This document shows, one piece after another, positions 5,806 to 58,263 of a stretch of 64,000 nt of DNA. How positions within the stretch are numbered: the first letter of the stretch is position 1; every line of letters begins with the position of its first letter. Origin of the DNA: Candidatus Omnitrophota bacterium (lineage in GTDB: Bacteria; Omnitrophota; Gorgyraeia; Gygaellales; Profunditerraquicolaceae); contig JAHFFR010000001.1 of NCBI GenBank assembly GCA_023247825.1, positions 23,009 through 87,008 of the forward strand, given 5' to 3'. The translations under genes were made by a program, and so were the position numbers. A model generated the notes under the pieces. That model saw only the letters and a list, made by a program, of their open reading frames with translations, ran no database searches and had not been told where the DNA came from.

Positions 5806-6987
5806 TCAGCGCAACCATGTATATATATCAGAGGCATTATTCGGTGGCTGTTTGATAACCTTATCCCAGAGTTCCCTATCCAATACCGCCCACATTTTTT
5901 TAAATTCTTCGTTTAACATATCCAATGTTTCCGGAATCACGGTAATCTGTTGTACTGGGCTCGAGAAAAGCGCCCGGGCAAAATTGCCATTTTGAATAAA
6001 GCCCATTGTAAGCAATGGTTCGGATAAAGAATTAAGGAGAAGAAATGGTTTGGAACCGAAAAGCGCCATGCTGCCGGGCCCGGAAGCCGCTCCCATATGT
6101 ATGGCCGCGCCATTGATCAGGGCCAGATCCTGTTCAACGCCCGCGCGAAAGTCTTTTGTCATGAGCACATTTGAGCAGCGCTTGAAACGTTCGTCCATTT
6201 CGGATTCCGCTCCGATGATGATGAATTTAACCGGATATTGCTCTTTGCATACGGTAAAGAATTCAAGCCAGACATCATAATTAGAATTACGGCCTGGGTT
6301 AACTTTATTCTTTCGCAATTGAACTGTTACCGGAAGAAAAGGAAAGACATGTTTGTGCATAAAATCAGAGGCCCAAGAAAGCATATTGGGCCTTGGATTC
6401 AAAGCGGGGAGCCGGTTATTTTTTTGGTAATACTCAGCAAGGAGTTCGTGATAAATACGATAGATCAGGTACTCCCGGGAAAAATACGTTCCTGCCGACG
6501 GCCAAACCAGATATCGGTCCATATTGTCCGCCACAAAACGTTCCAGATGGTCATGGCTATTAAACAGGAATAGAGAGCCAAGGCGCGAGTTCATCTGCGC
6601 TACGGGAAGAATCAAAGCCAGGTGAAAAAGGTAATTATCTTCGGTGATACCGGACAGGACAGGATCAGGAGCGGCGGGGCGAGCAGGGTTGTAGACCAAC
6701 GCAAAATCGACGGCCGCACAATTATTTTTCTCGAGCAAAACAAGGCCGGCTTCCTGAAAAGTAAGAATGTCGCCGACACTATAGGGCTGGCTTGTCAGGT
6801 CATAAATCATCAGGACACGCCGATCTTCTTTCCGGACGACACAAAAAATACTATGCGGTAAGGCAAAAAACCAGGCAAATATGCCTATAATTCTGTATAT
6901 GGGACTTCTAACCGCGCGAAATACGGCCGCACACGGAGGAGAAGTATTTCTTAATCTTTTAGCGATATTCCACAAACGCCGCCACAT
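5806..6987 (-). CDS. Hypothetical protein, possibly a GT9 (heptosyltransferase-like) glycosyltransferase
   Basis: Weak resemblance to GT9 motifs (VLMIYDLTSQPYSVGDILT; HMGAASGPGSMALFG compared with D(T/S)GPMHLAAA..LFG). No firm family call. Confidence 0.4.
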   Translation of the reverse strand: MWRRLWNIAKRLRNTSPPCAAVFRAVRSPIYRIIGIFAWFFALPHSIFCVVRKEDRRVLMIYDLTSQPYSVGDILTFQEAGLVLLEKNNCAAVDFALVYNPARPAAPDPVLSGITEDNYLFHLALILPVAQMNSRLGSLFLFNSHDHLERFVADNMDRYLVWPSAGTYFSREYLIYRIYHELLAEYYQKNNRLPALNPRPNMLSWASDFMHKHVFPFLPVTVQLRKNKVNPGRNSNYDVWLEFFTVCKEQYPVKFIIIGAESEMDERFKRCSNVLMTKDFRAGVEQDLALINGAAIHMGAASGPGSMALFGSKPFLLLNSLSEPLLTMGFIQNGNFARALFSSPVQQITVIPETLDMLNEEFKKMWAVLDRELWDKVIKQPPNNASDIYTWLR

Positions 6988-7048
6988 AAATCCCCCTCAT
7001 TATTTTAAAATATTATAATATATTCTACCATCACCTTTATAATACTAT
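6988..7048 (-). promoter_or_regulatory. AT-rich intergenic leader with a strong SD (GAGGGGG) 7 bp upstream of the ATG of the 5806..6987 gene; possible internal promoter (TAGAAT / TATAAT-like hexamers)
   Basis: The reverse complement reads ...ggtgatggTAGAATatatTATAATattttaaaataatGAGGGGGatttATG. This is one of the few >50-bp gaps in the operon. Confidence 0.25.
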
Positions 7049-8419
7049 CTACCCTTTTAAATTACTGTGCCAGCTTATTCTGCAGTATTGCCAAGTTACA
7101 AATACCAGAGGAATTATTATAATGTTTACAATCAAATATCCCATGGCGACCCCGGCAGCTGAATAATATTTTCCCAGAATAATTGTTAACCCTCCGATAA
7201 GCGCTCCTGCCATAACCGATAAGAATACGAGTGGTTCTTTTTTATGCGCACGCAAATATCCTGACGCGGGAAGCGATACGCTTACAATAATCTGCGCCAA
7301 TAAAAAAATAGCTACCGTTAATGGTGGTAGAAACCTTACGGCAAATTTACTATGAAAATTATATAGCAAAAAAATACCAAACCAAATCGATAAACCTAAA
7401 ATTACAGAAACAATTAAAACAACCCTTGTCATCTTAAAGAATAGCTTATCCAGTGTTTCGTAATCTTTCTTAGCGATAAGCATTCCGAATCTAGGAATTT
7501 TTGGCGCAAGCCAGGCACTCGATATCCAAATAACAATCCCTACCAAATTCCATGTCATTCCCATTTGCCCTGCGACGACTGACCCGTGGAATTTGAATAA
7601 TACCGGCGTAAATAACGAAAAAACAAAATATCCACCAACCCAAGAGACAGCTATCCTCCATTGCATTGGGAAGATATCCTTATACCATTTAATCCGCGGC
7701 CCTTTCGCATTAAGAAAAAACAGGCTTCTGAAAAAATACCAATATTTGTATTTTATGAAGAATAGGCCGCACGCCAGAAACATTATACTTGAAACAGAAA
7801 GCGCAAAAAGCCCTGCCCCGGATAAGATTGCAATCCAAATAGATAAGTTTACCAGTAATCCTTGCCAAAACTTAAAAAAATATAATTCTGCAAGTTGATT
7901 GCACCCTTCCAGCAGCGACCATATCGGGGCCAGGCAAAGATTTATACCAGTTAAAAAACATAAGCTAAACCATGGAAATACCCAACTGATACCGGATTTT
8001 TGTGATTCTAAAAAGAATACATACCCGCCTATTCCTAAAAAAAGAATTAGGAAGGCCGCGCCGACTGCATACCATCTTAAAGACAACCGTGCTAAACTAC
8101 CCAGCCTTGACAGCGCTTCTTCACTGCCCGCTATAAAACCTTTTTCTGTAATACTAAGGCGCGACCATTCATGGCTTGCAAATTGAATGATTACAACTCC
8201 AAGGCCTAGCTCCACAAAAACCTGTAGCGCAAGAAGCGTGCTGAAGGTATAGTAATACCCCTGTAATTCAGGCGAAAATTTGATAATGATAAGTATAATC
8301 GTAATGGGGCCTGTGATGATCAACCATGCTTTCGATAAGATACTAAAAAATGCGGGCCGATCAACTTCAATCTTCCGCAAATTATTCTTAATAAAATTTC
8401 TCGCCTCGGATATTTTCAT
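7049..8419 (-). CDS. Polytopic membrane protein, Wzx-like (MOP/polysaccharide biosynthesis flippase family) candidate
   Basis: 456 aa with about 12 predicted TM helices and a Wzx-like N-terminal region (IIIKFSPELQGYYYTFSTLLALQVFVELGLG). Confidence 0.55.
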   Translation of the reverse strand: MKISEARNFIKNNLRKIEVDRPAFFSILSKAWLIITGPITIILIIIKFSPELQGYYYTFSTLLALQVFVELGLGVVIIQFASHEWSRLSITEKGFIAGSEEALSRLGSLARLSLRWYAVGAAFLILFLGIGGYVFFLESQKSGISWVFPWFSLCFLTGINLCLAPIWSLLEGCNQLAELYFFKFWQGLLVNLSIWIAILSGAGLFALSVSSIMFLACGLFFIKYKYWYFFRSLFFLNAKGPRIKWYKDIFPMQWRIAVSWVGGYFVFSLFTPVLFKFHGSVVAGQMGMTWNLVGIVIWISSAWLAPKIPRFGMLIAKKDYETLDKLFFKMTRVVLIVSVILGLSIWFGIFLLYNFHSKFAVRFLPPLTVAIFLLAQIIVSVSLPASGYLRAHKKEPLVFLSVMAGALIGGLTIILGKYYSAAGVAMGYLIVNIIIIPLVFVTWQYCRISWHSNLKG

Positions 8420-9477
8420 TTCTTAAACCTTTGACTTGGGCCCATATTTATTAATATGCGGCCCCCTGTTCCCTTCTTTAGCTTATTCAGCGCCTTATTG
8501 ATATTTGACAAACTACACATATCGCCGATAAGCTCGCCGATTTTTAATTTTCCGGATAAATATAAATCCGCATACATCGGTATATCAATATCGGGGTTTG
8601 TTCCGCCACCCCAAGCGCCTACGATCCCTTTACCTTTTATCAAATTAAAGGGGTCAATCGATATTTTATCTCCCTGCGGCAAATTACCCGTTATTATACA
8701 AAGCCCGCCTTTATCGCGGACTGACTGAAAAGCGGCTTCCATCATCGCCCTACTTCCCGAACATTCAACCGCATAATCAACGCCCTTACCTGCCGTAATT
8801 TCCATTATACAAGATAAAACGCCGCCTTTCTTAGCGTTTATTATATCTGTAGCACCAAGTTGCCGGGCCTTTTCAAGTTTATACTCAAACTTATCAACCC
8901 CGATAATACTGGGAACACCTATCATCCGCGCAGCCAATAAAGCGCTCAACCCAATACCACCCAATCCAAAAATAGCTATACTGTTGGCATATCCTTTTTT
9001 TATTGCTTTAATCACAATACCTGCGCCGGTTGGAATAGCGCATCCGAACAATGCGGCTTCCTTTAAAGGTATGCCGTCAGGAATTCTGACTACGCGATTT
9101 TCAGAAACTACCGCTTTCGTCAAAAATGTTGAGATAGCTCCTGAATTAACAATGCCACCATTGCCTTTTAAGTATTGGCAGGATGGGACATCTATTCCGG
9201 AGCCTTTTAACCATGTTAATACCACAAGATCGCCAACTTTAACTTTTTTTACACTTTCGCCAATCGCCGCTACTACACCCGACCCCTCATGCCCAAGAGT
9301 ATGCGGCAAAAACCTATCCTCCCCTTTCAATCCACCGATTTCATTCAACTGTGAATGACAAATGCCGCTATAAGCTATTTTTACCAATACCTGGCCATGT
9401 TTCAGCTCTGGAACTGTCAGCTCCTCGATGCGTAAAGGATTATTTATTTTCTCTAATACAGCCGCTAAAGTTTTCAT
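8416..9477 (-). CDS. Zinc-dependent medium-chain alcohol dehydrogenase/reductase
   Basis: GHEGSGVV zinc-ligand motif, a GLGGIGLSA Rossmann motif and a GICHSQ motif. 353 aa. Confidence 0.8.
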   Translation of the reverse strand: MKTLAAVLEKINNPLRIEELTVPELKHGQVLVKIAYSGICHSQLNEIGGLKGEDRFLPHTLGHEGSGVVAAIGESVKKVKVGDLVVLTWLKGSGIDVPSCQYLKGNGGIVNSGAISTFLTKAVVSENRVVRIPDGIPLKEAALFGCAIPTGAGIVIKAIKKGYANSIAIFGLGGIGLSALLAARMIGVPSIIGVDKFEYKLEKARQLGATDIINAKKGGVLSCIMEITAGKGVDYAVECSGSRAMMEAAFQSVRDKGGLCIITGNLPQGDKISIDPFNLIKGKGIVGAWGGGTNPDIDIPMYADLYLSGKLKIGELIGDMCSLSNINKALNKLKKGTGGRILINMGPSQRFKK

Positions 9478-9492: not shown

Positions 9493-10164
9493 CTAATCCG
9501 CGATAAACCACCAATAATCCCCGCTATAGCCGACTTCAGCGAACAGCTTCTTCCATTCGTCAACATGCATCATTGTTTCAGCAGTAAGTACCCACTTAAA
9601 GAGGTTAACGCGCTCCTGCTCGTTGCGCCAGGCGTCAATGGTAATATAGCTATTCCCGCGGCAGACACGCTGAATTTCCCGCAGGGATATTTTAAGACGC
9701 TCAAGAGAAAGATTGTGGATCGAATTAATAGAAATCACTAAATCAAAAGATTTATCGGGATAAGGCAATTTTTCAGCGCTGGCGATTTTCAGAAACGGTT
9801 TTACGGAAGCCATGGCGTTCTCGATCGCGTATTCACTGACGTCTATGCCGGCAACGGTTGCCTGCGGCATCAACTCCTTAAAATCATGAAGCATAAAACC
9901 TTTAGCGCAGCCGATATCAAGAATCGCGGCATTATCCGGCAGATGATAAAAATTCTTTATCAGCTTTACGACCGTCCTCCAGCGGCCATCATATTTATAA
10001 CCACCATAGCCACATCTCCTATCACCATCGAAGAAATCCCGACTGAATTGCTTGGCTAACTTAATAATTTCCTGTGTCTTTTCACGTGCACGCTTATCAT
10101 AATCACGCGCGGTTTTTGGATAGCTATCCAATAAATTTATTTCACTCATAATTTTAATTTTCAA
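9493..10164 (-). CDS. Class I SAM-dependent methyltransferase
   Basis: Motif I is ILDIGCAKGFML. 223 aa. Confidence 0.7.
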   Translation of the reverse strand: MKIKIMSEINLLDSYPKTARDYDKRAREKTQEIIKLAKQFSRDFFDGDRRCGYGGYKYDGRWRTVVKLIKNFYHLPDNAAILDIGCAKGFMLHDFKELMPQATVAGIDVSEYAIENAMASVKPFLKIASAEKLPYPDKSFDLVISINSIHNLSLERLKISLREIQRVCRGNSYITIDAWRNEQERVNLFKWVLTAETMMHVDEWKKLFAEVGYSGDYWWFIAD

Positions 10165-10172
10165 TTAAATCT

Positions 10173-11093
10173 CTAAAATAATTCAGACTTTACCTTTTGT
10201 ACAATATTATCCACGGTAAACCCAAGAAGTTCACAAATATCTGCATAAGAGCCATAATCCCTGACAAAGATATCAGGTATAGCAATAAATGAATATTTTA
10301 TACCAGCCAGATCTTTAGTAATTCTGAGGACTTCATCGCCCATTCCTCCATACATACTATGCTCTTCTATAACAATAACTTTCTTGGTATTTTTAACACT
10401 TTCCAGTATCAATTTCTGATCAAAAGGTTTAATGGTGTGCATATAAATTATCTCTGCATCAAAACCAAACTTCTTCAATAACTCAGAGGCATCCAACGCA
10501 GTTTTTAACTGAGGGCCAGTGACTACAATAGTTAGATCGTTACCCTTCGTAACCTTTATCCCCTTTCCTGATATAAGCTGCTCTTTGCTAAAAATAAAAT
10601 CATGGGATAACCTAGGGATACGAAAATAGGATACCTTTCCATTGTTATACGTTTGTTTAAAAAGGGTAATAAGTTCTATTGGGGAAGCGGGAAAAAATAT
10701 CTGAGTATCGGGTAGCGGTTTTAACAAAGCGAAATCAACGTAACAATGATGAGTACATCCAAGAGTTGAATAATCAAAAGCGCTGCCGACAGTAATAATA
10801 TTAACTCCCAGCTCTTGATAACAAAAATCTAGCTTTATCTGCTCATACGACCTTTCTACAATAAACGGAGCGATGGTATGTACAACTGGATAAAAACCCA
10901 ACATCGATAAACCAGCTGCCATATTTACAATGGTTGGCTCGCAAATACCAATATTATAATATCTACCCTGGCATGCCTTAGCAAAATCCAGAAGCCTAAA
11001 ATGGCTTATGTCACCAACCATAACCACAAGGTTTTCATCCTTCTTACCTACCTCAAGGAGCGTATCAGCAAACTCCTCACGCATATCCTTCAT
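10173..11093 (-). CDS. Transketolase, C-terminal (pyrimidine-binding) subunit of a split transketolase
   Basis: Transketolase pyrimidine-binding/C-terminal domain pattern. Its start overlaps the stop of the N-terminal subunit gene by 4 bp. Confidence 0.85.
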   Translation of the reverse strand: MKDMREEFADTLLEVGKKDENLVVMVGDISHFRLLDFAKACQGRYYNIGICEPTIVNMAAGLSMLGFYPVVHTIAPFIVERSYEQIKLDFCYQELGVNIITVGSAFDYSTLGCTHHCYVDFALLKPLPDTQIFFPASPIELITLFKQTYNNGKVSYFRIPRLSHDFIFSKEQLISGKGIKVTKGNDLTIVVTGPQLKTALDASELLKKFGFDAEIIYMHTIKPFDQKLILESVKNTKKVIVIEEHSMYGGMGDEVLRITKDLAGIKYSFIAIPDIFVRDYGSYADICELLGFTVDNIVQKVKSELF

Positions 11094-11878
11094 AAGGCAA
11101 GCTCCTTATAGATTAATTCTAATTCTTCTTTATTGGGAACTTTATAATGCCACGGCCCATGCGTTTCCATAAACTTAACCCCTTTACCTTTTACAGTATC
11201 AGCGATTATAACTTTGGGCTTTGCATTAAAGTCAAACTTTGTTTCTTTGAATACTCTCTCAATCTCTTCCTCTTTATGACCATTAATTCTATGCACTTCC
11301 CAACCAAAAGAGCTCCATTTATCAGAAAGATTTGAAACAGGCAAGACCTGAGTCGTGGAACCATTGTTATCTATTATACAACAAAAGTTACCCAATTTTA
11401 AATTTGCTGCTACTAAAGCTGTTTCCCAGACGGTTCCTTCATTGCATTCTCCATCTCCAACAAGCGCTATGACTTTATTTCTTTTATTCCTTATCTTAAG
11501 ACCCAAAGCAATACCCATTGCTGTAACAATGCCATGCCCTAAGGAACCAGTACACGCCTCAACCCCCGGAACTTTTGTCCTATCAGGGTGCCCTCCCAAA
11601 ATTGCGCCTTTTTTGCTCTTATTATCTAAATCATCCTGAAGAATAAAGCCATGTTTTTCCAAAACTACATAAAGAGCTGCGCAACCGTGCCCTTTACTTA
11701 AAATGAAATAATCTCTCCCATCCCAAAGTGGATTTTTAGGGTTAAACTTAATGACCTTATCATATAAGTATGCGATTATATCAATTATTGAGAAAGCGCT
11801 TGGAATATGCCCCTCTCCAGCCTTATAAACCATATCTACTATCTTTTTGCGCAATTCTTTATTCATCATGTTATTCAT
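11090..11878 (-). CDS. Transketolase, N-terminal (ThDP-binding) subunit
   Basis: GHPDRTKVPGVEACTGSLGHG and GDGECNEG ThDP-binding motifs. Confidence 0.85.
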   Translation of the reverse strand: MNNMMNKELRKKIVDMVYKAGEGHIPSAFSIIDIIAYLYDKVIKFNPKNPLWDGRDYFILSKGHGCAALYVVLEKHGFILQDDLDNKSKKGAILGGHPDRTKVPGVEACTGSLGHGIVTAMGIALGLKIRNKRNKVIALVGDGECNEGTVWETALVAANLKLGNFCCIIDNNGSTTQVLPVSNLSDKWSSFGWEVHRINGHKEEEIERVFKETKFDFNAKPKVIIADTVKGKGVKFMETHGPWHYKVPNKEELELIYKELAL

Positions 11879-11901
11879 TTAATCTTCTTAAATTTTTAAT
11901 A

Positions 11902-12678
11902 CTACTGTCCAAAATATCCTCTTCCTTGCCCGCCATCAACAGGAATAATACTTCCAGTATTAAAAGAAGCTAATTCTGAACAAAGAAAAACCACAAAATT
12001 ACCAATTTCCTCTGGGCTTCCGAAACGGCCTATTCTTTGCCTCTCAGCTAAAAATCTCTTTACGTGTTTGGGATTACTTTTAGAAACTTGATCCCAATAG
12101 CCACCTTTTGTAAAAACAGCTCCCGGTAAAACAGCAGAAACAACTACACCATCAGGAGCAACTACTCCCCCAAAGCTCCTAGTATAAGCGGTCAAAGCGG
12201 CTTTCATGGCGCAATAAGTTACCGGGCCATGATTTTCCATAGCTGAGATAGAAGAGATATGAATTACCCTACCCCATTTATTTTTCTGAAGATAAGGAAC
12301 AATTAGGCTATTAATCTCAACTGCTACTTCAAAATTAAAACGATATACTCTTCTCCATTGCTGTATAGAACAAAACGGATCTTTAATGTCAAGGGTTCCT
12401 CCTAAATTATGCACAATGATCTCAGGAATCCCAAAACTTTTTCTTAATTTATTAAAAAGCAACCGCGGGGATTTTTCTTTCTCAAGATCAAGAACTACAG
12501 CAATATGGTTCTTGCTCCCGCCAGGCATTTTAGCGATTAAACTATTGAGATCGGCCTTAGACCTGGAAACAACAGCAATACGCGCGCCTTCATTTGCTAA
12601 ACCAAGCGCAATAACGTTTCCAATCCCCCTACCACTACCTGTTACTAAAGCTAACTTGCCCTTAATTCCAAGCTCCAT
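11902..12678 (-). CDS. Classical short-chain dehydrogenase/reductase (SDR)
   Basis: TGSGRGIGNVIA glycine-rich motif. 258 aa. Confidence 0.8.
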   Translation of the reverse strand: MELGIKGKLALVTGSGRGIGNVIALGLANEGARIAVVSRSKADLNSLIAKMPGGSKNHIAVVLDLEKEKSPRLLFNKLRKSFGIPEIIVHNLGGTLDIKDPFCSIQQWRRVYRFNFEVAVEINSLIVPYLQKNKWGRVIHISSISAMENHGPVTYCAMKAALTAYTRSFGGVVAPDGVVVSAVLPGAVFTKGGYWDQVSKSNPKHVKRFLAERQRIGRFGSPEEIGNFVVFLCSELASFNTGSIIPVDGGQGRGYFGQ

Positions 12679-12694
12679 CCCGCACCTCTTTTCA

Positions 12695-13897: not shown

Positions 13898-13928
13898 AAA
13901 TGTTGTTTAGGTTTATTTAATTTCTAAA

Positions 13929-14126
13929 TTAAAATGGCCCCTTAAACCAGCCTCCCGGCACATCACTACCGTTACTAGAATCAGTGACGGCTTCCACGGG
14001 GACCCGAAACATAGCCGCGGCTATCCGAGTGATATCCACGGCTCGGGGATAATAGTGTTTCGCCAGCTCCCAGCTTGCTGGCGTCGGTAGATCCGGAAAC
14101 GCGACTCGTCGTGGAGCGCATTTCAA
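13929..14126 (-). pseudogene. Remnant encoding only the C-terminal ~65 aa of an E1-beta (ThDP enzyme) subunit
   Basis: VAFPDLPTPASWELAKHYYPRAVDI aligns with the C-terminus of the intact E1-beta at 15724..16779 (ITFPDVPTPTSPALAKYYYPRAVDI). The fragment is visibly more GC-rich than its surroundings. Confidence 0.6.
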
Positions 14127-14233
14127 GCTGTCGAGGCATTTTTCCGCTGCCAGCGCTTTCCTATATCGCTACCTATACCAAGAATACCAAGAATAAAAAC
14201 ATTTTTTGTGACTGTCTTCTTTCCGACCATATT

Positions 14234-16779: not shown

Positions 16780-16790
16780 TTTATCGGTTA

Positions 16791-46190: not shown

Positions 46191-46191
46191 T

Positions 46192-46282: not shown

Positions 46283-46311
46283 GTAAAATTGGGAGTTTCG
46301 CAACAGCCCCC

Positions 46312-47646: not shown

Positions 47647-47647
47647 G

Positions 47648-49757: not shown

Positions 49758-49804
49758 CAGCGGCTCCTCATAAAATTATTGGCTTCTAAATAATTTTAAT
49801 ACAT

Positions 49805-50740: not shown

Positions 50741-50746
50741 TTTCTA

Positions 50747-51685
50747 CTATTTCCTTATTTTCGGATAATTAGAAACAAACCACTTTACTGTTTCTTCAAT
50801 TCCTTTTTCTATGGATGTAAATTCAAACTTCGGCAAATATTTTCTTAATTTTGTAGTGTCTGACGGTTTTCTAAACTGCCCTTCGGGTTTTGTCGTATCA
50901 AATATTACCCTACCTTCAAATCCAATTTTCCTAACAATAACATCGACAATGTCCATTATTGATGTTTCTATGCCGTGCGACAAAATAATGGAATACTCTT
51001 CGCTATAATTTTCTAAAGCCCATATCGCCAATTCCGCGATATCCTTTGAATACACCATTTCTCTTAGCGGCTTCCCGCTACCCCAGAGCACAAGGTCTGT
51101 GTTATTTTTCATTGCCAAATAGCATTTGTGTATCAAAGAAGGGATAACATGGCCGTCTTCTAAATTGAAATTATCATTAGGACCATAAGCATTTGTCGGT
51201 ATAGCTACAATATAATCGCATCCCCATTCTTTTCTATAAGCGACGCTCTGAACTTCAAGCATTCTTTTTGCATAAGCATACCCAAAATTTGACGGGTGAG
51301 GCGGGCCATTATGAATATCCTTTTCATTAAGCGGATATTGACAAGCTTCAGGAAAAACACATGTAGACATAAAAGAAACGAGCTTCTTAACACCACATAA
51401 ACGCGCTGCCTCAAGGACATTGATGTTTATCATTATGTTATTGCAAAAATATTCCCCGGAATGTATCATATTACCGCCTAATCCCCCTACTTGAGCGGCA
51501 AGATGAATTACCTTATCCGGCTTGATTACATTAAAAACATCTTTTGTTGCTGTGAAATCTGTAAGATCCGCGTCTTTTCTTGTCAAATAGGCCATTTCGG
51601 GTAAACCAAGACTCGTGATGGCATGTCCGATAAGACCCCCGGCACCGGTAACCAGTATCTTAGGCATTATCATCCTCTCCCACAC
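50747..51685 (-). CDS. GDP-L-fucose synthase (Fcl)-like epimerase/reductase, copy 3 (most canonical)
   Basis: ILVTGAGGLIGHAI, GYAYAKRM (YxxxK) and GPNDNF motifs. 312 aa. Confidence 0.8.
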   Translation of the reverse strand: MWERMIMPKILVTGAGGLIGHAITSLGLPEMAYLTRKDADLTDFTATKDVFNVIKPDKVIHLAAQVGGLGGNMIHSGEYFCNNIMININVLEAARLCGVKKLVSFMSTCVFPEACQYPLNEKDIHNGPPHPSNFGYAYAKRMLEVQSVAYRKEWGCDYIVAIPTNAYGPNDNFNLEDGHVIPSLIHKCYLAMKNNTDLVLWGSGKPLREMVYSKDIAELAIWALENYSEEYSIILSHGIETSIMDIVDVIVRKIGFEGRVIFDTTKPEGQFRKPSDTTKLRKYLPKFEFTSIEKGIEETVKWFVSNYPKIRK

Positions 51686-52722
51686 GGTACATTATCATGC
51701 GCATAAAGCAGCTTCTGCCATTCTATGGTCTTCTTGAGCCCTTCAGTAAAGTCAACATATTCTTTTTTGTTAAATTCATGTTCAGCCTTCGACATGTCTA
51801 AAAAAACATCTTCCGGGGCACCGGCCAAGCCTTCAGGTAAATTGTCCGGGCAGGTAACTGGTACTTTTAGATAGTCGCCGATCTTGCGCGCAAGATCCAT
51901 TATCGTAACGCTCGAATGGCCGCCTACGTTGTAAATCGCTTCGGAGCCCTTAAAAAGTATATTCCACATTATATCGACTGCATCGCTTACATAACAATAT
52001 GTCCTCTTTGCCCGTCCATGATCCAGCAAGGATATCCCGCCTTTCAAACCTTTTCGTATAAATTCGTTGATCACTCGCTTGTCTCCATCTTTTGTTCCGG
52101 GTCCGTATGCAAGCGATAACCTTGCGGACTTCGCCTTAACTCCCTTCTGCCTGTAGGCGTTACAAATTGCTTCCCCACACCTCTTCGCCTCAATATAACA
52201 AGCTCTTGGATGGTCCGTATTAGTCGAACCGACGTCGGTTTCTACATGCGGAATGCGCTTCTGCCCGGTATAGATTTCACTTGTACTTAAAAACAACAAC
52301 TTACCATTGGCGGCAAGTTTATCAAAAAGTTCGAACAACACAACGGTATTCAATTTGATGGTCTTTACAGGATCCTGCAAAAATCTGCCGGGCTGGCCAT
52401 ATCCCGCCGCATGTATGATATAGTCGGCCTTAGGCAAGCCGCGGCAAACATCGACACCCGTTAAATCCCCCCGGACTATCTCCGACCCATCGAATCCGGC
52501 TATATCTTTAAAATATTCCGCCGGCTCACTATTAACGGTACTGTAAACTTTGAAAGGCAGCCTTTTTTTTGTCTTTAAATAATTAAGGCTGGCCAGGAAA
52601 TGCGTTCCGACTAAACCGGACGCGCCTGTTATGATTATGCTTTTATCTTTTATCTCCTCAAAATCTACCCATTCGCAGACCGTTCGCGCGTCTTCTAGTA
52701 TCAATTCAGCAAGTCTATTCAT
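51670..52722 (-). CDS. NAD-dependent epimerase/dehydratase (extended SDR)
   Basis: IIITGASGLVG and YIEAK motifs. 350 aa. Confidence 0.7.
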   Translation of the reverse strand: MNRLAELILEDARTVCEWVDFEEIKDKSIIITGASGLVGTHFLASLNYLKTKKRLPFKVYSTVNSEPAEYFKDIAGFDGSEIVRGDLTGVDVCRGLPKADYIIHAAGYGQPGRFLQDPVKTIKLNTVVLFELFDKLAANGKLLFLSTSEIYTGQKRIPHVETDVGSTNTDHPRACYIEAKRCGEAICNAYRQKGVKAKSARLSLAYGPGTKDGDKRVINEFIRKGLKGGISLLDHGRAKRTYCYVSDAVDIMWNILFKGSEAIYNVGGHSSVTIMDLARKIGDYLKVPVTCPDNLPEGLAGAPEDVFLDMSKAEHEFNKKEYVDFTEGLKKTIEWQKLLYAHDNVPCGRG

Positions 52723-53596
52723 TTATGAGGCTCCCCAGCTTCAAACGAATATTTTGCGGCGTCAAACCAATACATTGATTATGATCTTGGGCTTTTCCAT
52801 ATTGAGTTAAAAAGACATGCGGAACTCCTATATGCTCAATCTTAACGCTATTAATGCCAACTGATTTTATAACATCATAATCCAAGGCACCTGAATAATA
52901 TGGTTCGCATATGAGTATCTTTGAGGATGCGCAGTTTTGCCTTAAAGTTTCCACGTCAAATGGTTCTAACGAAGTATAATATAAAATTGTAATATCAATA
53001 TCAACACAAGCAGACATTACATCTTCCAAAACAGGGCCTACCGCAATTATGGTAGCCTTGGCCCCCCTTTTTAATACTGCAGCCTTACCAAATTCAACAC
53101 TGTTAGGTAATGAATTACCCTTTTCGGTCAATCTGAAATATGTAGCTCTTCCGTTAGTGTAAGACTGCTGAAACAGCCTATCAAACTCTTCGGGGTGACC
53201 AGGGACAACAATTTGCATGCCTGGGACATTCTTTAGGATTCCAACATCACCCGGGCAGTGATGCGTACAACCAAGAGCGGCATAGTCGAATGAACTGCCC
53301 ACGCTTATAAAATTACCACCAAGATTTTGGTAGCAAAAGTCGATTTTGATCTGTTCCAAGCTTCTTTCGACAATGAAAGGAGCAATAGTATGCACAACTG
53401 GAATAAATCCCTCTGAAGATAATCCCGCTGCAAGCCCCACAGTAGCCTGTTCTAAAATACCGGCATTATACATCCTATCAGGATATTTTTCGAAAGCACG
53501 CCTAAAACCAAAAACCCCAATGTCTCCGAGCAATACAATCAATCTACTATCCTGTTCAAGAACCGACTCAATAGTTTTAACAAATTGTTGTCTCAT
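52715..53596 (-). CDS. Transketolase C-terminal subunit, second split pair
   Basis: A paralogue of 10173..11093. 293 aa. Confidence 0.85.
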   Translation of the reverse strand: MRQQFVKTIESVLEQDSRLIVLLGDIGVFGFRRAFEKYPDRMYNAGILEQATVGLAAGLSSEGFIPVVHTIAPFIVERSLEQIKIDFCYQNLGGNFISVGSSFDYAALGCTHHCPGDVGILKNVPGMQIVVPGHPEEFDRLFQQSYTNGRATYFRLTEKGNSLPNSVEFGKAAVLKRGAKATIIAVGPVLEDVMSACVDIDITILYYTSLEPFDVETLRQNCASSKILICEPYYSGALDYDVIKSVGINSVKIEHIGVPHVFLTQYGKAQDHNQCIGLTPQNIRLKLGSLINE

Positions 53597-53598
53597 TA

Positions 53599-54360
53599 TC
53601 AGTCCAAGCTCTTAAGAATTTCTATCAACTCATCTTTTGTGGGTGACCTGTGATGCCATGCAGGATTATTTTCCATCACTTTACATCCTCTTCCTTTTAT
53701 CGTATTGGCAATAACAGCTACGGGTTTATCTTTAGGAGTATCCCTCAAGGCATTATATATTTGTTCGTGATCATGCCCATCAATCTCACAGCTCCTCCAT
53801 CCAAAAGCTTCGAATTTCATCGCAAGATCGCCAACGTTCAAAGCTCTGTCGGTCGAATGATTGTAATCAATTATGCATATGAGATTGTTCAATTTATGAT
53901 GCGCCGCCAAAAGCACCGCCTCCCAAACAGAGCCTTCGTTGCATTCACCGTCTCCGATTATTGTAAATACCTTTGAAAACGATTTTTTTATCTTCAGAGC
54001 TAGGGCAATCCCAACAGCCATAGGGAATCCATGGCCTAAAGAACCTGTTGAAGCTTCCACGCCAGGAATTTTATTCCGGTCAGGATGGCCTCCTAAAATA
54101 GAATCATATTTTGCAAAATTATCTATTAGCGATTTGTCAAAAAACCCTTTTTCAGATAAAACAACATAAAGGCCAAGCGAAGCATGGCCTTTGCTTAAAA
54201 TAAATCTATCACGGCCGGGGTGAATAGGATCATGAGGATATACATTCAGGATTCTGTCATATAATACCCACAATATATCCAGCACGGACAAGGCACTCGG
54301 GATATGCCCTTCTCCCATATTTGCCGCTATCGTAATTATTTTCTCAACAAATCTTTTCAT
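53599..54360 (-). CDS. Transketolase N-terminal (ThDP-binding) subunit, second split pair
   Basis: GHPDRNKIPGVEASTGSLGHG and GDGECNEG motifs. About 50% identity to 11090..11878. Confidence 0.85.
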   Translation of the reverse strand: MKRFVEKIITIAANMGEGHIPSALSVLDILWVLYDRILNVYPHDPIHPGRDRFILSKGHASLGLYVVLSEKGFFDKSLIDNFAKYDSILGGHPDRNKIPGVEASTGSLGHGFPMAVGIALALKIKKSFSKVFTIIGDGECNEGSVWEAVLLAAHHKLNNLICIIDYNHSTDRALNVGDLAMKFEAFGWRSCEIDGHDHEQIYNALRDTPKDKPVAVIANTIKGRGCKVMENNPAWHHRSPTKDELIEILKSLD

Positions 54361-54374: not shown

Positions 54375-55682
54375 CTACTTTTTATTAAGCTCCCATTTGG
54401 TGCCGCCCAGCACACAACACCAATTATTAGCTCCCTGTCCATACCGCAGCATCGTCGAACCTGTTTCAACAACATTAAACCGCAAAGCATCTTCACGCGC
54501 ATCTATAACGTACGTATTAGGATGATGCGCATACAACCGAACAACATATCTGTCGGGTACGAGAAAGTTAGCTTTAAGCCACACCGACGTTTTGCGTAAA
54601 CCGGGCTTAAGTTCCGCAAACTCCTTATTGTTGCCGTCAGATAAACTGGAGAATAATACCTTAACGCCAAGCGAATTTTCTAATACAACGGTGACTTCCG
54701 TATTTGCGGTCAGGCTTATTACCTGAAATTCAAGACCAATCATAAACGGTTTCAATACGTCTACATTCACGGTTAAATTACCCTGATCGTCGGTTATCCA
54801 TGCCCGAGTGAAAGACACATTAGCGCCCGGACGCGGAATAAACTCAACAGCAGCGCTTGCTATCTCGTTCTTATCCGAAAGGTATTGTTCTATAACAGAC
54901 GCTGCCTCGCCCTGAGCCGCCAATTTACCCCTATCGAGTAAAATTGCTTGCGGGCATAATGTTCGCACCATCGGAATATTGTGGCTCACGAATAATAATG
55001 TTCGCCCATCCTTAGTCAAGTCGCTCATCTTACCCAGGCACTTCTTCTGAAAGACAATGTCTCCCACTGCCAGAACTTCGTCTACCAGTAGAATCTCTGA
55101 CTCCAGATGAGCGGCTACCGCGAAAGCCAGCCGCACGTACATGCCGCTTGAGTAACGTTTCACCGGCGTATCAAGAAAACGCTCCACCTCGGCAAACGCC
55201 ACTATTTCATCAAATTTCTTTTTTATTTCAACTCGGCTCATGCCAAGAATAGCGCCGTTAAGATATATATTTTCACTTCCGGTAAGCTCAGGATGAAATC
55301 CGGTCCCTACTTCAAGCAGACTTGCCACGCGCCCCTTGCTGGAGACCCTACCTTTAGACGGCTCCGTAATACGGCTCAAGATCTTCAAGAGGGTGGTTTT
55401 ACCCGCGCCATTACGCCCAATGATCCCGATACGATCCCCCTGACATATATCAAATGAGACATTCTTGAGCGCCCAGAATTCTTCAACTGTTGAATCTTTG
55501 TTTTTTACAGCACCCCTCTTAAAAAGCCTCCTTCCCGCTTCTTTGACTGAATTCATAATTACATCGCGAAGGGCTGTGTAGCGCCGCTCCTGATGCTCGT
55601 GACGCAGCATATATTTTTTACCCAGATTTTCGATTTTAATAACAGTTTTCATAATAACATTAGATAAAGTCCGCGAAAACAC
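54375..55682 (-). CDS. wzt: ABC polysaccharide exporter ATPase with a C-terminal ~180-aa extension (putative glycan-terminus-binding domain)
   Basis: Walker A GRNGAGKTT, signature YSSGMYVRLAF, Walker B ILLVDEVLAVGD, followed by a beta-rich C-terminal domain. 435 aa. Confidence 0.85.
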   Translation of the reverse strand: MFSRTLSNVIMKTVIKIENLGKKYMLRHEHQERRYTALRDVIMNSVKEAGRRLFKRGAVKNKDSTVEEFWALKNVSFDICQGDRIGIIGRNGAGKTTLLKILSRITEPSKGRVSSKGRVASLLEVGTGFHPELTGSENIYLNGAILGMSRVEIKKKFDEIVAFAEVERFLDTPVKRYSSGMYVRLAFAVAAHLESEILLVDEVLAVGDIVFQKKCLGKMSDLTKDGRTLLFVSHNIPMVRTLCPQAILLDRGKLAAQGEAASVIEQYLSDKNEIASAAVEFIPRPGANVSFTRAWITDDQGNLTVNVDVLKPFMIGLEFQVISLTANTEVTVVLENSLGVKVLFSSLSDGNNKEFAELKPGLRKTSVWLKANFLVPDRYVVRLYAHHPNTYVIDAREDALRFNVVETGSTMLRYGQGANNWCCVLGGTKWELNKK

Positions 55683-56499
55683 GCTCCGTTTTTCTGAAGT
55701 ACCATAATCCCGCCAACAATAGTAAAGCCATGACCAATGAAGAAGCTATAAAACCGGGCCAGTAAATCTGCTCGTTCCCGCCTAAGATCGCCCACCGGAA
55801 ACCGTCTATTACGCCCACCATCGGATTGAGGGAATAAAGCAAGCGCCATTTTTCGGGAATAATACTGCTAGAAAATCCGACCGGCGAGATGTATAGCCCC
55901 AATTGAAGAACGAAAGGGACGATATAACGAAAATCGCGATATTTAACGTTTAATGTCGCCAGCACGAGCCCGGAACCAAACGAAACCATAAAGGCCAAGA
56001 ACAGAAAAAGCGGAAGGATAATAATATGCCAGCTGGGGGTAAAACGGTAGCAGATCATGAGAACTATGAGGATAGCAAAAGAAATGGCAAAGTCAACCAG
56101 GCTTACAATCACCGTACTTGCAGGGATCACTAGCCGCGGAAAATACACCTTAGTGAGCATATTGGCATTAGATATTAAAGAGCCGCTGCTGTCACTCAGT
56201 CCATTTGCGAAAAATTGCCAGGGGAGCATAGCGGCGAATACTAATACCGGATAAGGCACATGGCCGGAGGGTAGCTTCGCAAGTTTACCAAAAATAATAG
56301 TAAAAACAACCATAGTCAGCAGAGGACGAATAACACTCCAGGCAATACCAATGACTGTCTGCTTATAGCGCACGAGCACATCGCGCCAGGCAAGAAATAA
56401 GAATAATTCTCTATAACGCCACAGATCCTTCCAGTAATGGAGCTCTGTTCGTCCTGCTTCAATTATCAAATCATAATCTGAATTAGTATTTGGATTCAT
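55660..56499 (-). CDS. wzm: ABC-2 polysaccharide exporter permease
   Basis: Six TM helices. Its stop overlaps the wzt start. 279 aa. Confidence 0.8.
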   Translation of the reverse strand: MNPNTNSDYDLIIEAGRTELHYWKDLWRYRELFLFLAWRDVLVRYKQTVIGIAWSVIRPLLTMVVFTIIFGKLAKLPSGHVPYPVLVFAAMLPWQFFANGLSDSSGSLISNANMLTKVYFPRLVIPASTVIVSLVDFAISFAILIVLMICYRFTPSWHIIILPLFLFLAFMVSFGSGLVLATLNVKYRDFRYIVPFVLQLGLYISPVGFSSSIIPEKWRLLYSLNPMVGVIDGFRWAILGGNEQIYWPGFIASSLVMALLLLAGLWYFRKTERVFADFI

Positions 56500-56500
56500 T

Positions 56501-57514
56501 TTAGCGTGTCAGGAAATGTCTCCCTGGTTTTACCCTGTCTCTCCAGTAATCAAGCAAATCTTTCATTGTTTTTTCAAAAGGTATCTCGGGTTTCCAACCT
56601 GTATGAGCTTTGAATTTTTTTGTATCAGGGACCTGCAGGTCGGCATCAAGGGGGCGCAGCCTGCTTTTTTCTGTTTCAACTTTTATATTCTTAGCAGTGG
56701 AGATGGAAAGCAAGTAGTTAAGCATTTCCCTTACCGTACAAGTGTAAGTGCCGCCTATATTGTAATATTCGCCCGCTATCGGATTGATAGTTACCAGCAT
56801 AAAATATGCTCTTACCGCATCCCGGACATCTGCCCATGTACGCAGAGAATCTAAATTGCCGGTTTTTACTATAGGCGGTATCATCTTATATTCTATCATA
56901 GCGATCTGTTTCGCAAAGGTGGATTCGGCAAAGACATCGCCGCGGCGGGGCCCGGTATGAGTAAACATCCGGGTAACAATAACTTTTTGTCCATACGCTT
57001 CGGCATGGAACCTGCCTGACAGATCAGTGCCTGTTTTTGAAATTGCGTAGGGCGAGGCTGGATGAAAAGAGCAGTTTTCGTTTATCGGCAATTTTTCTTT
57101 AGCGACTCTTCCGAAAATCTCAGACGAAGAACATACATGGATAATAGGATCAATGTCGTGGCACCTTCTCAATGCCTCAAGCAATCTCTCGGTTCCAAGA
57201 ATATTCGTGTCCAGGGTATGAATGGGGGAACTAAAACTTATAGTCGGATAACTCTGCGCAGCGAGGTGAAAGACGTAATCCGGACGGCTTTCCTCAACAA
57301 CATTCTGCAACGAAATATAGTCGCATAGATCGCCATATACGAAATAAACGCGATCTTTCCTGTTAGCTCGATCAAGAAGATGTTGAACATTATCTAAAGG
57401 GCTGCGCCATCGGCACATGCCGTAAATATCCCACCCGGTATTTCCCAATAAGAAATCGGCCAAATGGGAACCGACCATACCGCTAATTCCGGTAATAAGG
57501 GCTCGTTTTTTCAT
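56501..57514 (-). CDS. Gmd-family NDP-sugar 4,6-dehydratase or 4-reductase (Gmd/Rmd-like)
   Basis: ALITGISGMVGSHL, YAISK and FTHTGPRRG motifs. 337 aa. Confidence 0.8.
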   Translation of the reverse strand: MKKRALITGISGMVGSHLADFLLGNTGWDIYGMCRWRSPLDNVQHLLDRANRKDRVYFVYGDLCDYISLQNVVEESRPDYVFHLAAQSYPTISFSSPIHTLDTNILGTERLLEALRRCHDIDPIIHVCSSSEIFGRVAKEKLPINENCSFHPASPYAISKTGTDLSGRFHAEAYGQKVIVTRMFTHTGPRRGDVFAESTFAKQIAMIEYKMIPPIVKTGNLDSLRTWADVRDAVRAYFMLVTINPIAGEYYNIGGTYTCTVREMLNYLLSISTAKNIKVETEKSRLRPLDADLQVPDTKKFKAHTGWKPEIPFEKTMKDLLDYWRDRVKPGRHFLTR

Positions 57515-58263
57515 TATTTATCACCCCTAGATTTTTCAGTCTCGACAGATCTTTTAACCTTATTAAAAAAAGATTCTGCTTCCTTATACGAGCTTGATGT
57601 GCCAATATCGATAAATTTCGCATCTTGCGGAAATGCAAATAATCCGCTACCAATCATCTCCGGAAAAAAATTATTTTCGAGTGAGATATTTTCCTTTTCC
57701 CTTATTAACGCCACCGATCCGCGGTTTATGCAATATATTCCGGCGTTGATCCACCCGCTTTTGATATCCGCGCTTTTTTCATCAAAGGAAGTAACCATGT
57801 AATTTGAGTCAAAATTGACGCAGCCGTATCTGCTTACATCCGGTACGCGAACCAGGGCCAGTGTGCATGACGATTTTCTTAAAAGATGCCATTCTAATAA
57901 ATTCTGCGGATTAATCCCGCAGTAGGAGTCTCCGTTGTAAACCATAACCACATCGGATTTTATCATATCAAACGCATTTCTTATTGCGCCTGCCGTACCT
58001 AAAGGCTCTTGCTCTTTTGAATAACGCAGTGAAAGCGCCTTATACCTACTACCCAATAATTTTTCGATTTGTTCACCCATGAACCCTGTGCATAAAGTTA
58101 CATCCTTACCGCCCGCATTTGAAATTTGTTCGAGAATAAACGTAATGAACGGGCGCCCGGTAACTTCGGCAAGAACTTTTTGCCGGTCAGAAACTATTAA
58201 CCGCAACCTCTTGCCAAGCCCCCCACATAGAATCAATATGCTGATTTGAGACAGGTTATCCAT
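57514..58263 (-). CDS. Sugar-1-phosphate nucleotidyltransferase, HddC (heptose-1-P guanylyltransferase)-like
   Basis: ILCGGLGKRLR (G-x-G-x-R-L) motif. 249 aa. Confidence 0.75.
   Translation of the reverse strand: MDNLSQISILILCGGLGKRLRLIVSDRQKVLAEVTGRPFITFILEQISNAGGKDVTLCTGFMGEQIEKLLGSRYKALSLRYSKEQEPLGTAGAIRNAFDMIKSDVVMVYNGDSYCGINPQNLLEWHLLRKSSCTLALVRVPDVSRYGCVNFDSNYMVTSFDEKSADIKSGWINAGIYCINRGSVALIREKENISLENNFFPEMIGSGLFAFPQDAKFIDIGTSSSYKEAESFFNKVKRSVETEKSRGDK

Follow-up and report, generated by a model that had tools for sequence, protein, structure and literature searches.

How many surface glycans does a 52-kb, single-strand run of sugar-modifying genes specify, and from which sugars would they be built? 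We addressed this question for a 64,000-nucleotide stretch of contig JAHFFR010000001.1 from a Candidatus Omnitrophota bacterium (positions 23,009 to 87,008, forward strand; hereafter, the window), of which positions 5806-58263 had been read, in a preliminary description made from the sequence, as one supercluster for a single hyper-modified deoxyheptose polymer. That reading is only partly supported: its family content stands, whereas two export systems, two Gmd genes, a dehydratase pseudogene (g44), gene fragments and junction repeats speak against it. The region is probably a recombinational mosaic of O-antigen- or capsule-type surface-polysaccharide genes, made of at least two adjacent loci and not of one pathway, and as a whole it appears to match no characterised locus. 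Within it lie two conserved gene sets, here called cassettes A and B, which also occur in other genomes.

Gene layout and mosaic scars

We numbered as g1-g63 the open reading frames (ORFs) of at least 100 amino acids that tile the window without nesting, scanning 63 of 63 with Pfam and 50 of 63 with NCBIfam. All 63 lie on the minus strand, and 52 of them (g5-g56), a number slightly below the roughly 55 first counted, cover 98.6% of positions 5806-58263, which bears out the tightly packed, one-strand run of about 52 kb. Of the 51 junctions between g5 and g56, 21 are overlaps, 21 measure 0-20 nt and seven 21-70 nt, while the two large gaps, the only ones of their kind in this interval, fall at 13898-14233 (336 nt) and 46005-46311 (307 nt). 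The run is dense, as had been proposed, with 42 of 51 junctions at 20 nt or less, but it is neither mostly overlapping (21 of 51) nor uninterrupted, being broken by g44. Nor does it end where it had been taken to end, as glycan genes on the same strand continue past both 5806 and 58263, with rmlA, rmlD and rmlB on one side and an epimerase, a PLD-like protein and a PglC-type transferase on the other (Table 1). GC skew is negative across the whole window, and the GC content of its segments ranges from 0.35 to 0.48. Scans for sigma-70 promoters (66 versus 54±7 in one half, 48 versus 52±8 in the other) and for intrinsic terminators (17 versus 18±5 and 23 versus 18±5) stayed at the level of shuffled controls, and because of this the borders of transcription units are not placeable.

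Nearly all of the family calls made earlier hold at the superfamily level in Pfam and NCBIfam, including the HddA, HddC, Gmd, E1 and transketolase calls on which the chemistry depends, none of which turned out to belong to an unrelated family. Among the ORFs scanned with NCBIfam, only g30 (Gmd) clears an equivalog cut-off (566 versus 415).

Several scars lie at the boundaries between gene modules. At the dehydratase position of cassette B, tblastn with g55 as query recovers g55-like residues 143-196 and 195-329 of g44 in two frames, the N-terminus being gone, while the intact g55 lies 10 kb upstream beside the Wzm and Wzt genes. The junction at 58.3-59.0 kb holds fragments of a helix-turn-helix (HTH) regulator and of Wzz, and the AbiEii (g57) and ORF6N (g58) matches next to it cover C-terminal parts of their profiles only, marking truncated toxin-antitoxin-type genes. 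A 31-nt sequence resembling repetitive extragenic palindromic (REP) elements occurs in inverted orientation at 46192-46222 and 58916-58946 (repeat I1, 94% complementary), one copy in the gap that flanks g44 and the other in the gap that holds the Wzz and HTH fragments. A palindromic element, GGGACAGTCCC-N7-GGGACAGTCCC, is present three times, at 58411-58439, 59476-59504 and 62524-62550, and gives 12 strand-wise matches against 0.38 expected; its third copy lies inside rmlB (g61), whose ORF is uninterrupted and reads 'GLSPKGTVP' there. In the 3' flank, a 300-nt direct repeat (D1, 97% identical, 3095-3394 and 4795-5094) brackets g3, an AAA_14/DUF4143 gene, and the 3' end of the epimerase gene g4 is duplicated downstream of g3, an arrangement suggestive of a scar left by insertion or duplication. 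Paralogs within the region have diverged to 40-68% identity.

Comparison with other genomes adds to this picture. In the closest relative found (88% identity in g17), rmlA-rmlD-rmlB comes first, then an epimerase and a g59-like gene, a toxin gene, an intact Wzz gene and an oxidoreductase gene; cassette A follows directly, with no more than about 4 kb between it and the rml flank and with none of the window's intervening genes. Because of this direct succession, the stretch between g56 and g20, roughly 37 kb long, can be regarded as variable content at this position. In locus L007, homologs of g59, g58 and g57 likewise directly precede cassette A. Copies of the window on ENA, Logan and NCBI contigs (L001 and L002) encode 100% identical proteins in the same gene order and cover g26-g7 only. 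We therefore read the region as a probable mosaic of at least two loci on account of the two export systems, the two Gmd genes, g44, the Wzz and HTH fragments, the junction repeats, the range of GC content and the arrangement in the closest relative.

A predicted GDP-heptose route and cassette B

The strongest single evidence for heptose chemistry is, at the level of sequence, g55, a predicted GDP-D-glycero-D-manno-heptose 4,6-dehydratase of the DdahA/WcbK/DmhA type. Over residues 1-335, g55 matches the Campylobacter jejuni enzyme (PDB 7US5) with 372 bits (E 3e-110), as against only 143 bits to the best Gmd, and both catalytic motifs, SSSE and YAISK, are in its sequence. The kinase g35 has HddA/WcbL-type heptose kinases as its top four PDB matches, among them 3K85, 4N3O and 4USK (116-127 bits), and HddA as its best NCBIfam match (150 bits, cut-off 600). 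For g56, the HddC model of NCBIfam scores 146 bits (cut-off 300) and the mannose-1-phosphate guanylyltransferase model 163 bits, both below cut-off, while g19 matches Pfam SIS_2 and, best among NCBIfam models, gmhA (123 bits, cut-off 209). Since these best matches are the expected ones and yet lie far under their cut-offs, the heptose-supply enzymes are distant members of their families; the proposed supply set for nucleoside diphosphate (NDP)-heptose (gmhA, HddA-like, HddC-like and HldE-like genes) thus holds at the superfamily level, with all four below equivalog cut-offs. The Campylobacter-type logic of GDP-heptose modification finds support in the scores of g55 and g35, and the predicted sequence of heptose-7-phosphate formation, activation and 4,6-dehydration to GDP-6-deoxy-4-keto-heptose is strongly supported.

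The surrounding dehydratase and reductase genes are largely as described. The gmd gene and two shorter Gmd/Rmd-like genes correspond to three Gmd-family members (g30, g26 and g55), but g26 is a second genuine Gmd (334 bits to PDB 1RPN); an assignment of g26 as an Rmd-type reductase was rejected, its best matches being genuine Gmd enzymes. The RmlC-like cupin (g38), three Fcl-like reductases (g49, g39 and g36) and the His-variant 3-dehydrase (g20) were confirmed with Pfam and NCBIfam.

Cassette B was defined from two genomic contexts (L050 and L051) found among relatives of g41, and consists, in order, of a GDP-heptose dehydratase, E1 alpha, E1 beta, g41, the short-chain dehydrogenase/reductase (SDR) g40, the reductase g39, the epimerase g38, the reductase g36 and the kinase g35. 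In L050, an Omnitrophota metagenome-assembled genome (MAG), it is present gene for gene at 59-92% identity, and a nucleotidyltransferase, Wzm, Wzt and homologs of g34 and g33 come next; in L051, a Chloroflexota MAG, it is present at 55-76% identity, and behind it lie GmhA and a HAD phosphatase, which completes the heptose-supply set there. The intact g55 shares 87% identity with the dehydratase at the head of cassette B in L050. Identities of g43 and g42 reach 72% and 85% to L050 and 59% and 72% to L051, and those of g36 and g35 reach 86% and 92% to L050. In the window, g37 is inserted between g38 and g36; it is not part of the collinear cassettes of L050 and L051, and its placement goes only as far as the xylose-isomerase-like TIM-barrel superfamily.

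Some members of the cassette are hard to assign from structural relatives. The epimerase g38 scores about equally against RmlC and the C. jejuni GDP-heptose 3,5-epimerases, and because of this tie the PDB comparison does not decide between a role as the missing RmlC of the rhamnose pathway and one in GDP-heptose epimerisation; g36 matches GDP-mannose 3,5-epimerase and Fcl. The family of g41 (42617-43603) comprises 829 homologs, has no specific Pfam model and includes the paralog g48 (49805-50740), which is 41% identical to g41. In the contexts examined, either an E1 alpha/beta pair or a split transketolase is encoded no more than a few genes upstream of the g41 homolog. An AlphaFold2 model of g41 (pLDDT 90) predicts a class-I methyltransferase fold, and a fold search with it returned only generic class-I methyltransferase matches (TM-score about 0.45), giving no clue to a substrate. 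The tandem proteins g33 and g34 are 65% identical to each other and have 196 homologs at 54-78% identity, often in tandem pairs; their AlphaFold2 prediction (pLDDT 81.5) has a GT-A fold with Foldseek matches to GalNAc-T and WrtF (E about 1e-10) and an invariant DD motif, and the two may form a two-subunit glycosyltransferase.

Both annotations confirmed the two E1 alpha/beta pairs (g43/g42 and g15/g14), the two split transketolases (g52/g51 and g10/g9) and the two B12-radical-SAM enzymes (g32 and g13) that had been called in the region. Against the NCBIfam E1 beta subfamily cut-off of 321, g42 passes with 329 bits and g14 falls just under with 319. Neither an E2 (lipoyl) nor an E3 family match was found among the 63 ORFs, and the E1 pairs, beside a dehydratase that forms a 4-keto sugar, have the composition of AviB1/AviB2-type genes. 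The order dehydratase-E1 alpha-E1 beta is kept in L050 and L051. Because this synteny is conserved in other phyla, the earlier proposal that the E1 pairs install two-carbon branches, here on a 4-keto-6-deoxyheptose, fits the analysis. AviB1/AviB2 and Pau11/Pau12 are E1 alpha/beta pairs proposed to form two-carbon sugar branches, the mechanism of Pau11/Pau12 being described as unknown (PMC4425429). Like the pairs in the window, those of avilamycin eurekanate (AviB1/AviB2) and paulomycose (Pau11/Pau12) are E2-less and pyruvate dehydrogenase-like and lie beside deoxy- or keto-sugar genes, a likeness of family and context; YerE, the thiamine diphosphate (ThDP)-dependent flavoenzyme of yersiniose, is a related known case. 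The AviB and Pau pairs belong to actinomycete antibiotic pathways with hexose or pentose substrates, in which addition is proposed to follow glycosyl transfer, whereas the window is a polysaccharide locus with a predicted heptose scaffold and, unlike them, has split transketolases as alternative or extra ThDP enzymes. Our literature searches returned nothing relevant on transketolase in O-antigen clusters or on heptose together with transketolase and radical SAM, and only general genomics papers on Omnitrophota with glycosyltransferases.

These observations suggest a working scheme for a first, ABC-transporter-dependent (Wzm/Wzt) locus, spanning roughly g56-g28 and carrying cassette B. GmhA (g19) would isomerise sedoheptulose-7-phosphate, g35 would phosphorylate the product and g56 would activate it, the GmhB step being supplied from elsewhere in the genome, after which g55 would generate GDP-6-deoxy-4-keto-heptose. 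Beyond this 4,6-dehydration we infer every chemical step, just as we do the nucleotide used by g17 and the glycan that each module feeds. The E1 pair g43/g42 would add a two-carbon branch to the 4-keto-6-deoxyheptose, g40 would reduce the branched product and g41 would methylate it, with the 3,5-epimerase g38 and the C4 reductases g39 and g36 setting the stereochemistry. The transketolase-based set g52-g47 may do a parallel, related job, and g34/g33 with other glycosyltransferases would polymerise the sugars. A heptose-based, ThDP-branched and heavily methylated glycan is plausible, and is now better supported for cassette B.

Cassette A, ordinary deoxysugars and export

Cassette A was defined by mapping all window proteins onto g17-related loci. 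It comprises GmhA (g19), the atypical SDR g18, g17 and the GalE-like SDR g16, after which come either an E1 alpha/beta pair or a split transketolase, then the methyltransferase g8 and the Zn-dependent alcohol dehydrogenase (Zn-ADH) g7. This set recurs in about 45 MAG loci. When 185,579 species genomes were scanned, 44 related loci emerged, the best of them with 86% identity in g17; all belong to uncultured bacteria known from MAGs or single-cell assemblies, and most are from the Planctomycetes-Verrucomicrobia-Chlamydiae (PVC) group. Alongside g17 homologs, E1 genes occur in 12-19 loci, transketolase genes in about 29, g8 in 26 and g7 in 32. In L012, a homolog of the g6-type Wzx follows cassette A.

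The protein g17 carries an N-terminal CTP_transf_like domain (best stretch 31-97) and a C-terminal PfkB domain (best stretch 389-498), with the motifs HxGH and DTxGAGD. Its best NCBIfam matches are the two RfaE domains, and like HldE (RfaE) it joins PfkB and cytidylyltransferase-like domains and is encoded beside a GmhA-like gene; it differs from HldE by its reversed domain order, with the nucleotidyltransferase first, and by a score far under the HldE cut-off (126 versus 521 bits). Its PDB relatives cover the nucleotidyltransferase half only and are all CTP-dependent cytidylyltransferases. The family forms a distinct clade, 55-88% conserved across PVC-group MAGs, whose nearest named relatives are annotated Candidatus Omnitrophica/Omnitrophota. 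Literature searches for CDP-heptose together with HldE returned nothing relevant.

The neighbouring g18 (20278-21288) resembles dTDP-glucose dehydratases in the PDB and scores 224 bits against the RmlB family (cut-off 365). In place of the TDE and YxxxK motifs canonical for RmlB-type enzymes, it reads STPEVYG and PYAASR; among its homologs in L003-L048, TPE, with Pro for the catalytic Asp, recurs in 39 of 40, as does YxxxR, with Arg for the SDR Lys, in about 31 of 40. Judged by its sequence, this residue set is unusual for a presumed 4,6-dehydratase. The motifs TPE and YxxxR led us to reject g18 as a straightforward 4,6-dehydratase.

Homologs of these genes also occur on plasmids of cultured strains. 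A plasmid of Azospirillum oryzae KACC 14407 carries homologs of g17, g19, g16 and E1 alpha/beta, and one of Azospirillum sp. B510 carries homologs of g35 (59%) and g38 (54%), a split transketolase, a g49-like gene and a TylF methyltransferase gene. In strain B510, a g41-like domain also forms the N-terminus of a 946-aa 'glycosyltransferase' (L053, 11950-14790). On plasmid pDCAR1 of Solidesulfovibrio carbinolicus (L054), a nonulosonic-acid locus with pseB, pseC, pseF and a NeuB-type gene encloses a g17 homolog (35%) together with genes for a SIS protein and a split transketolase and three radical-SAM genes. The pDCAR1 locus hints that the predicted kinase/cytidylyltransferase family of g17 extends beyond classical heptose polysaccharides.

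Other genes of the region point to more familiar sugars. The DegT-fold protein g20, with His in place of the Schiff-base Lys, is of the ColD type, with a score of 245 bits for ColD and of 152 bits for the CDP-sugar dehydrase E1/RfbH; its 'GHHMTT' aligns with 'SHHIAT' of ColD, the catalytic position being set by the ColD H188N entry. The match of g49 to human-type Fcl (331 bits) makes it a good GDP-L-fucose synthase. With two Gmd genes, the ColD-like gene, rmlABD and a good Fcl at hand, ordinary 6-deoxyhexoses may be what part of the locus makes, and pathways in which rmlABD would give dTDP-rhamnose, Gmd with ColD colitose and g49 GDP-fucose fit these genes better. Parts of the GDP-L-colitose (Gmd/ColD/ColC), GDP-L-fucose (Gmd/Fcl) and dTDP-L-rhamnose pathways are thus present, dispersed in the window among heptose and ThDP modules.

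Methylation is well represented. Of the two TylC3-type C-methyltransferases proposed, g25 is complete, with Methyltransf_13, Methyltransf_23 and Methyltransf_14 (E 2e-12 to 5e-44), while g12 is divergent, with the first two of these domains and a Methyltransf_14 match of only 20 bits, under the cut-off. Beside the Gmd gene g26, a TylC3-type C-methyltransferase suggests a 3-C-methyl 6-deoxyhexose, as has reportedly been proposed for virenose in Coxiella. Pfam and NCBIfam further confirm at least six other methyltransferases (six: g8, g28, g29, g41, g47 and g48), the Zn-ADH and the SDRs, of which two are classical (g11 and g40) and three Fcl-like. Glycosyltransferases number nine and not about eleven: three GT2, two GT4, two with Glyco_trans_1_2 domains and the g33/g34 pair.

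Of the two export systems that had been called, Wzm/Wzt is confirmed by ABC2_membrane in g54 and ABC_tran in g53, whereas the Wzx and Wzy matches are weak and below cut-off. The NCBIfam matches of g53 (54375-55682) are to galactan and teichoic export ATPases, and residues 289-408 form a weak Wzt_C-like domain (25 bits). In E. coli O9a-type systems the Wzt_C domain binds the methylated chain terminus, and since this locus is rich in methyltransferases, such a domain in g53 would suit it. An ABC exporter of this kind stands in place of the KpsMT capsule system of C. jejuni. The putative Wzx, g6, matches WZX_like along its full length (E 7.5e-13, 48 bits, cut-off 300) and has 11 hydrophobic segments; the putative Wzy, g23, has a weak Wzy_C match (25.6 bits, cut-off 31.7) and at least seven hydrophobic segments, and could equally be a WaaL-type ligase. 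The phosphoglycosyl transferase g1 (Bac_transf, E 1e-59) lies outside 5806-58263.

A second, Wzx/Wzy-type locus would span roughly g27-g5, with its own Gmd (g26), C-methyltransferase (g25), ColD-type enzyme (g20) and cassette A. In this locus g17 would make a second NDP-heptose, which g18 and g16 may oxidise or reduce and which g15/g14 and g10/g9 may branch or extend, followed by methylation by g13, g12 and g8 and reduction by g11 and g7.

Among the remaining genes, g5 and g59 have no family match in the Pfam and NCBIfam scans. The PLD-family protein g2 (1536-2987) looks secreted and has a long C-terminal region without a characterised match; because its homologs flank the island in L007 (36% identity) and L012 (71%), it may mark a conserved 3' border.

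Table 1. Features of the window, ordered from the 5' flank to the 3' flank of the gene run (window coordinates)
Feature	Position	Strand	Basis and remarks
rmlA g63 (cut by window end), rmlD g62, rmlB g61	61692..63951	-	Pfam NTP_transferase, RmlD_sub_bind, GDP_Man_Dehyd/Epimerase; dTDP-rhamnose, 5' flank
g60 extended-SDR epimerase, g59 no family, g58 ORF6N fragment, g57 AbiEii fragment	58983..61638	-	Pfam
Non-coding junction: HTH regulator fragment, Wzz N-terminus fragment, repeats	58264..58982	-	Sequence reading; D10, I1, GGGACAGTCCC element
g56 sugar-1-phosphate nucleotidyltransferase (HddC/ManC-like)	57514..58263	-	Pfam NTP_transferase
g55 predicted GDP-D-glycero-D-manno-heptose 4,6-dehydratase, putatively functional copy	56501..57514	-	PDB 7US5 match
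g54 Wzm (ABC-2 permease), g53 Wzt (ATPase)	54375..56499	-	Pfam ABC2_membrane, ABC_tran
g52/g51 split transketolase-like ThDP enzyme, pair 1	52715..54360	-	Pfam Transketolase_N, Transket_pyr; NCBIfam transketolase N and C halves
g50 extended SDR, g49 GDP-L-fucose-synthase type, g48 methyltransferase, g47 TylF-type O-methyltransferase	49041..52722	-	Pfam
g46/g45 tandem paralogs, Glyco_trans_1_2 domain, 68% identical	46312..49036	-	Pfam
g44 dehydratase pseudogene and REP-like element in gap	45579..46311	-	tblastn with g55; inverted repeat I1
g43/g42 E1 alpha and E1 beta, cassette B	43575..45571	-	Pfam E1_dh, Transket_pyr, Transketolase_C; NCBIfam pyruvate dehydrogenase E1 alpha/beta
g41 class-I methyltransferase, g40 SDR, g39 Fcl-like reductase, g38 RmlC-like 3,5-epimerase	40315..43603	-	Pfam, NCBIfam
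g37 xylose-isomerase-like TIM-barrel protein	39434..40300	-	Pfam AP_endonuc_2
g36 GME/Fcl-like SDR, g35 HddA-like GHMP kinase, cassette B end	37401..39394	-	PDB matches
g34/g33 tandem GT-A-fold glycosyltransferases	35620..37364	-	Predicted fold; no Pfam or NCBIfam family
g32 B12-radical-SAM, g31 GT2, g30 Gmd (long type), g29 FkbM methyltransferase, g28 methyltransferase, g27 GT4	29625..35616	-	Pfam
g26 Gmd (short, P. aeruginosa type), g25 TylC3-type sugar C-methyltransferase	27383..29589	-	PDB 1RPN; Pfam
g24 GT2, g23 Wzy/WaaL-like membrane protein, g22 GT4, g21 GT2	22978..27368	-	Pfam; low-GC core, GC 0.35
g20 ColD-type pyridoxamine phosphate (PMP)-dependent NDP-4-keto-6-deoxysugar 3-dehydrase	21828..23012	-	PDB ColD
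g19 GmhA-like, g18 atypical RmlB-like SDR, g17 reversed HldE, g16 GalE-like SDR; cassette A core	17768..21847	-	Pfam, NCBIfam, PDB
g15/g14 E1 alpha/beta, g13 B12-radical-SAM, g12 divergent C-methyltransferase, g11 SDR, g10/g9 split transketolase, g8 methyltransferase; cassette A tailoring	9493..17762	-	Pfam, NCBIfam
g7 Zn-ADH (ADH_N, ADH_zinc_N), g6 Wzx-like flippase, g5 one transmembrane segment, no family	5806..9477	-	Pfam, NCBIfam
g4 epimerase, g3 AAA_14/DUF4143 ATPase, g2 PLD-like, g1 PglC-type phosphoglycosyl transferase; 3' flank	909..5738	-	Pfam

Alternative readings and significance

Several observations weigh against a mosaic of two heptose-using loci. The background-level promoter and terminator counts leave a single long transcript possible, a single initiating transferase (g1) is seen, and one GmhA (g19) would have to serve both proposed routes. 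The models for GmhA, HddA, HddC, HldE, Fcl and RfbH all stay under their NCBIfam cut-offs, no GmhB was found (none of the 63 window ORFs has a HAD/Hydrolase Pfam match), and 6-deoxygenation in cassette A is uncertain because g18 is without the dehydratase Asp and the SDR Lys. The border between the two proposed loci is narrowed only to g29-g26.

Some of these points would suit one operon-like supercluster for a single highly modified deoxyheptose polymer, with both transporters serving one product, as would the co-orientation of the genes, their 42 short junctions and the lack of terminator signals above background. We nevertheless consider this improbable: besides the duplicated export systems and Gmd genes, the pseudogene and the fragments at junctions, the modules exist separately elsewhere, cassette B with Wzm/Wzt and cassette A with Wzx, and the closest relative is without the intervening 37 kb at this position. 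The same scars (g44, the truncated Wzz, HTH, AbiEii and ORF6N genes, the repeat elements and the 300-nt duplication), together with functions duplicated throughout, could also mean that the island is largely decaying or redundant, horizontally acquired cargo of which a subset is expressed, so that its richness overstates its chemistry. To this we likewise assign a low probability, as 51 of the 52 ORFs are full length in a run that is almost entirely coding, catalytic motifs are intact where checked, and the paralogs have diverged without being degraded. That the assembly joined loci of different strains is very improbable; the data are metagenomic, repeats lie at module junctions, and L001 and L002, which may share the same reads, stop short of the REP-bearing joins at 46.0-46.3 kb and 58.3-59.0 kb, but proteins and gene order are identical on the three sets of contigs and GC skew is uniformly negative.

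A further alternative concerns the chemistry: the ThDP enzymes might extend the chain to octose- or nonose-type sugars, or make non-sugar substituents, instead of branching a 4-keto sugar. Transketolases normally act on aldehyde acceptors, g18 lacks canonical dehydratase residues, g41 has a weak NCBIfam match to a pseudaminic-acid-associated methylase, and on pDCAR1 the g17 homolog, SIS protein and split transketolase sit inside a pseudaminic-acid-type locus, a context because of which a chain-extending or nonulosonate-related role has to be kept in view. We regard this alternative as unlikely, though deserving attention, since the dehydratase-E1 alpha-E1 beta order is strictly conserved in cassette B and the Pfam matches of the window include no NeuB-type synthase; moreover, two-carbon branching is the only role described for E2-less E1 pairs in sugar clusters (PMC4425429).

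A two-locus mosaic with heptose branching, the reading we prefer, has its nearest precedent in the C. jejuni capsule, for which a logic of GDP-heptose dehydratase, C3-dehydratase, epimerase and reductase has been described (PMC10440746, PMC10680097). As there, and as with DmhA/DmhB of Yersinia and WcbK/WcbJ of Burkholderia, the window combines putative GmhA, HddA-type and HddC-type functions; it also shares with C. jejuni the g55-type dehydratase, an RmlC-like epimerase, Fcl-like C4 reductases and a pyridoxal phosphate (PLP)/PMP-dependent C3-dehydratase (PMC10440746, PMC10680097). It differs from C. jejuni by the lack of GmhB in the locus, by supply enzymes under equivalog cut-offs, and by the E1 alpha/beta pair, dedicated methyltransferase and extra SDR that follow the dehydratase, which are not among the enzyme classes named in the abstract of PMC10680097.

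In its overall architecture the region recalls a different group of loci. The large one-strand O-antigen loci of the Leptospira rfb type likewise string together tens of glycan genes in a single orientation, carry rml genes at one end and vary in content between relatives. To our knowledge, a content rich in ThDP enzymes and heptose genes is not a described feature of Leptospira-type loci.

As to their products, we hold it possible, if only tentatively, that cassettes A and B are widespread routes from sedoheptulose-7-phosphate, by way of E2-less E1 alpha/beta or split-transketolase ThDP enzymes, to C-branched or extended, nine-carbon-class, methylated deoxy sugars of cell-surface glycans. If so, they would represent a bacterial monosaccharide family that chemistry has yet to reveal, common in MAGs of Omnitrophota, Verrucomicrobiota, Planctomycetota-like bacteria and Chloroflexota and open to experiment through the plasmid loci of Azospirillum and Solidesulfovibrio. 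Almost no members of the abundant Omnitrophota and neighbouring lineages have been cultured, and we know of nothing reported on the surface chemistry of Omnitrophota. The genes described here suggest that these bacteria carry GDP-heptose-modifying enzymes close to those of the Campylobacter capsule, linked to ThDP enzymes that form carbon-carbon bonds, which in sugar biosynthesis have, as far as we know, been described to date for no more than a few antibiotic sugar pathways. Each of the cassettes offers a testable set of 8-10 genes for finding new branched higher sugars, and both may provide new biocatalysts for carbon-carbon bond formation on nucleotide sugars, while the mosaic itself would mean that O-antigen-style shuffling of modules operates in these lineages.

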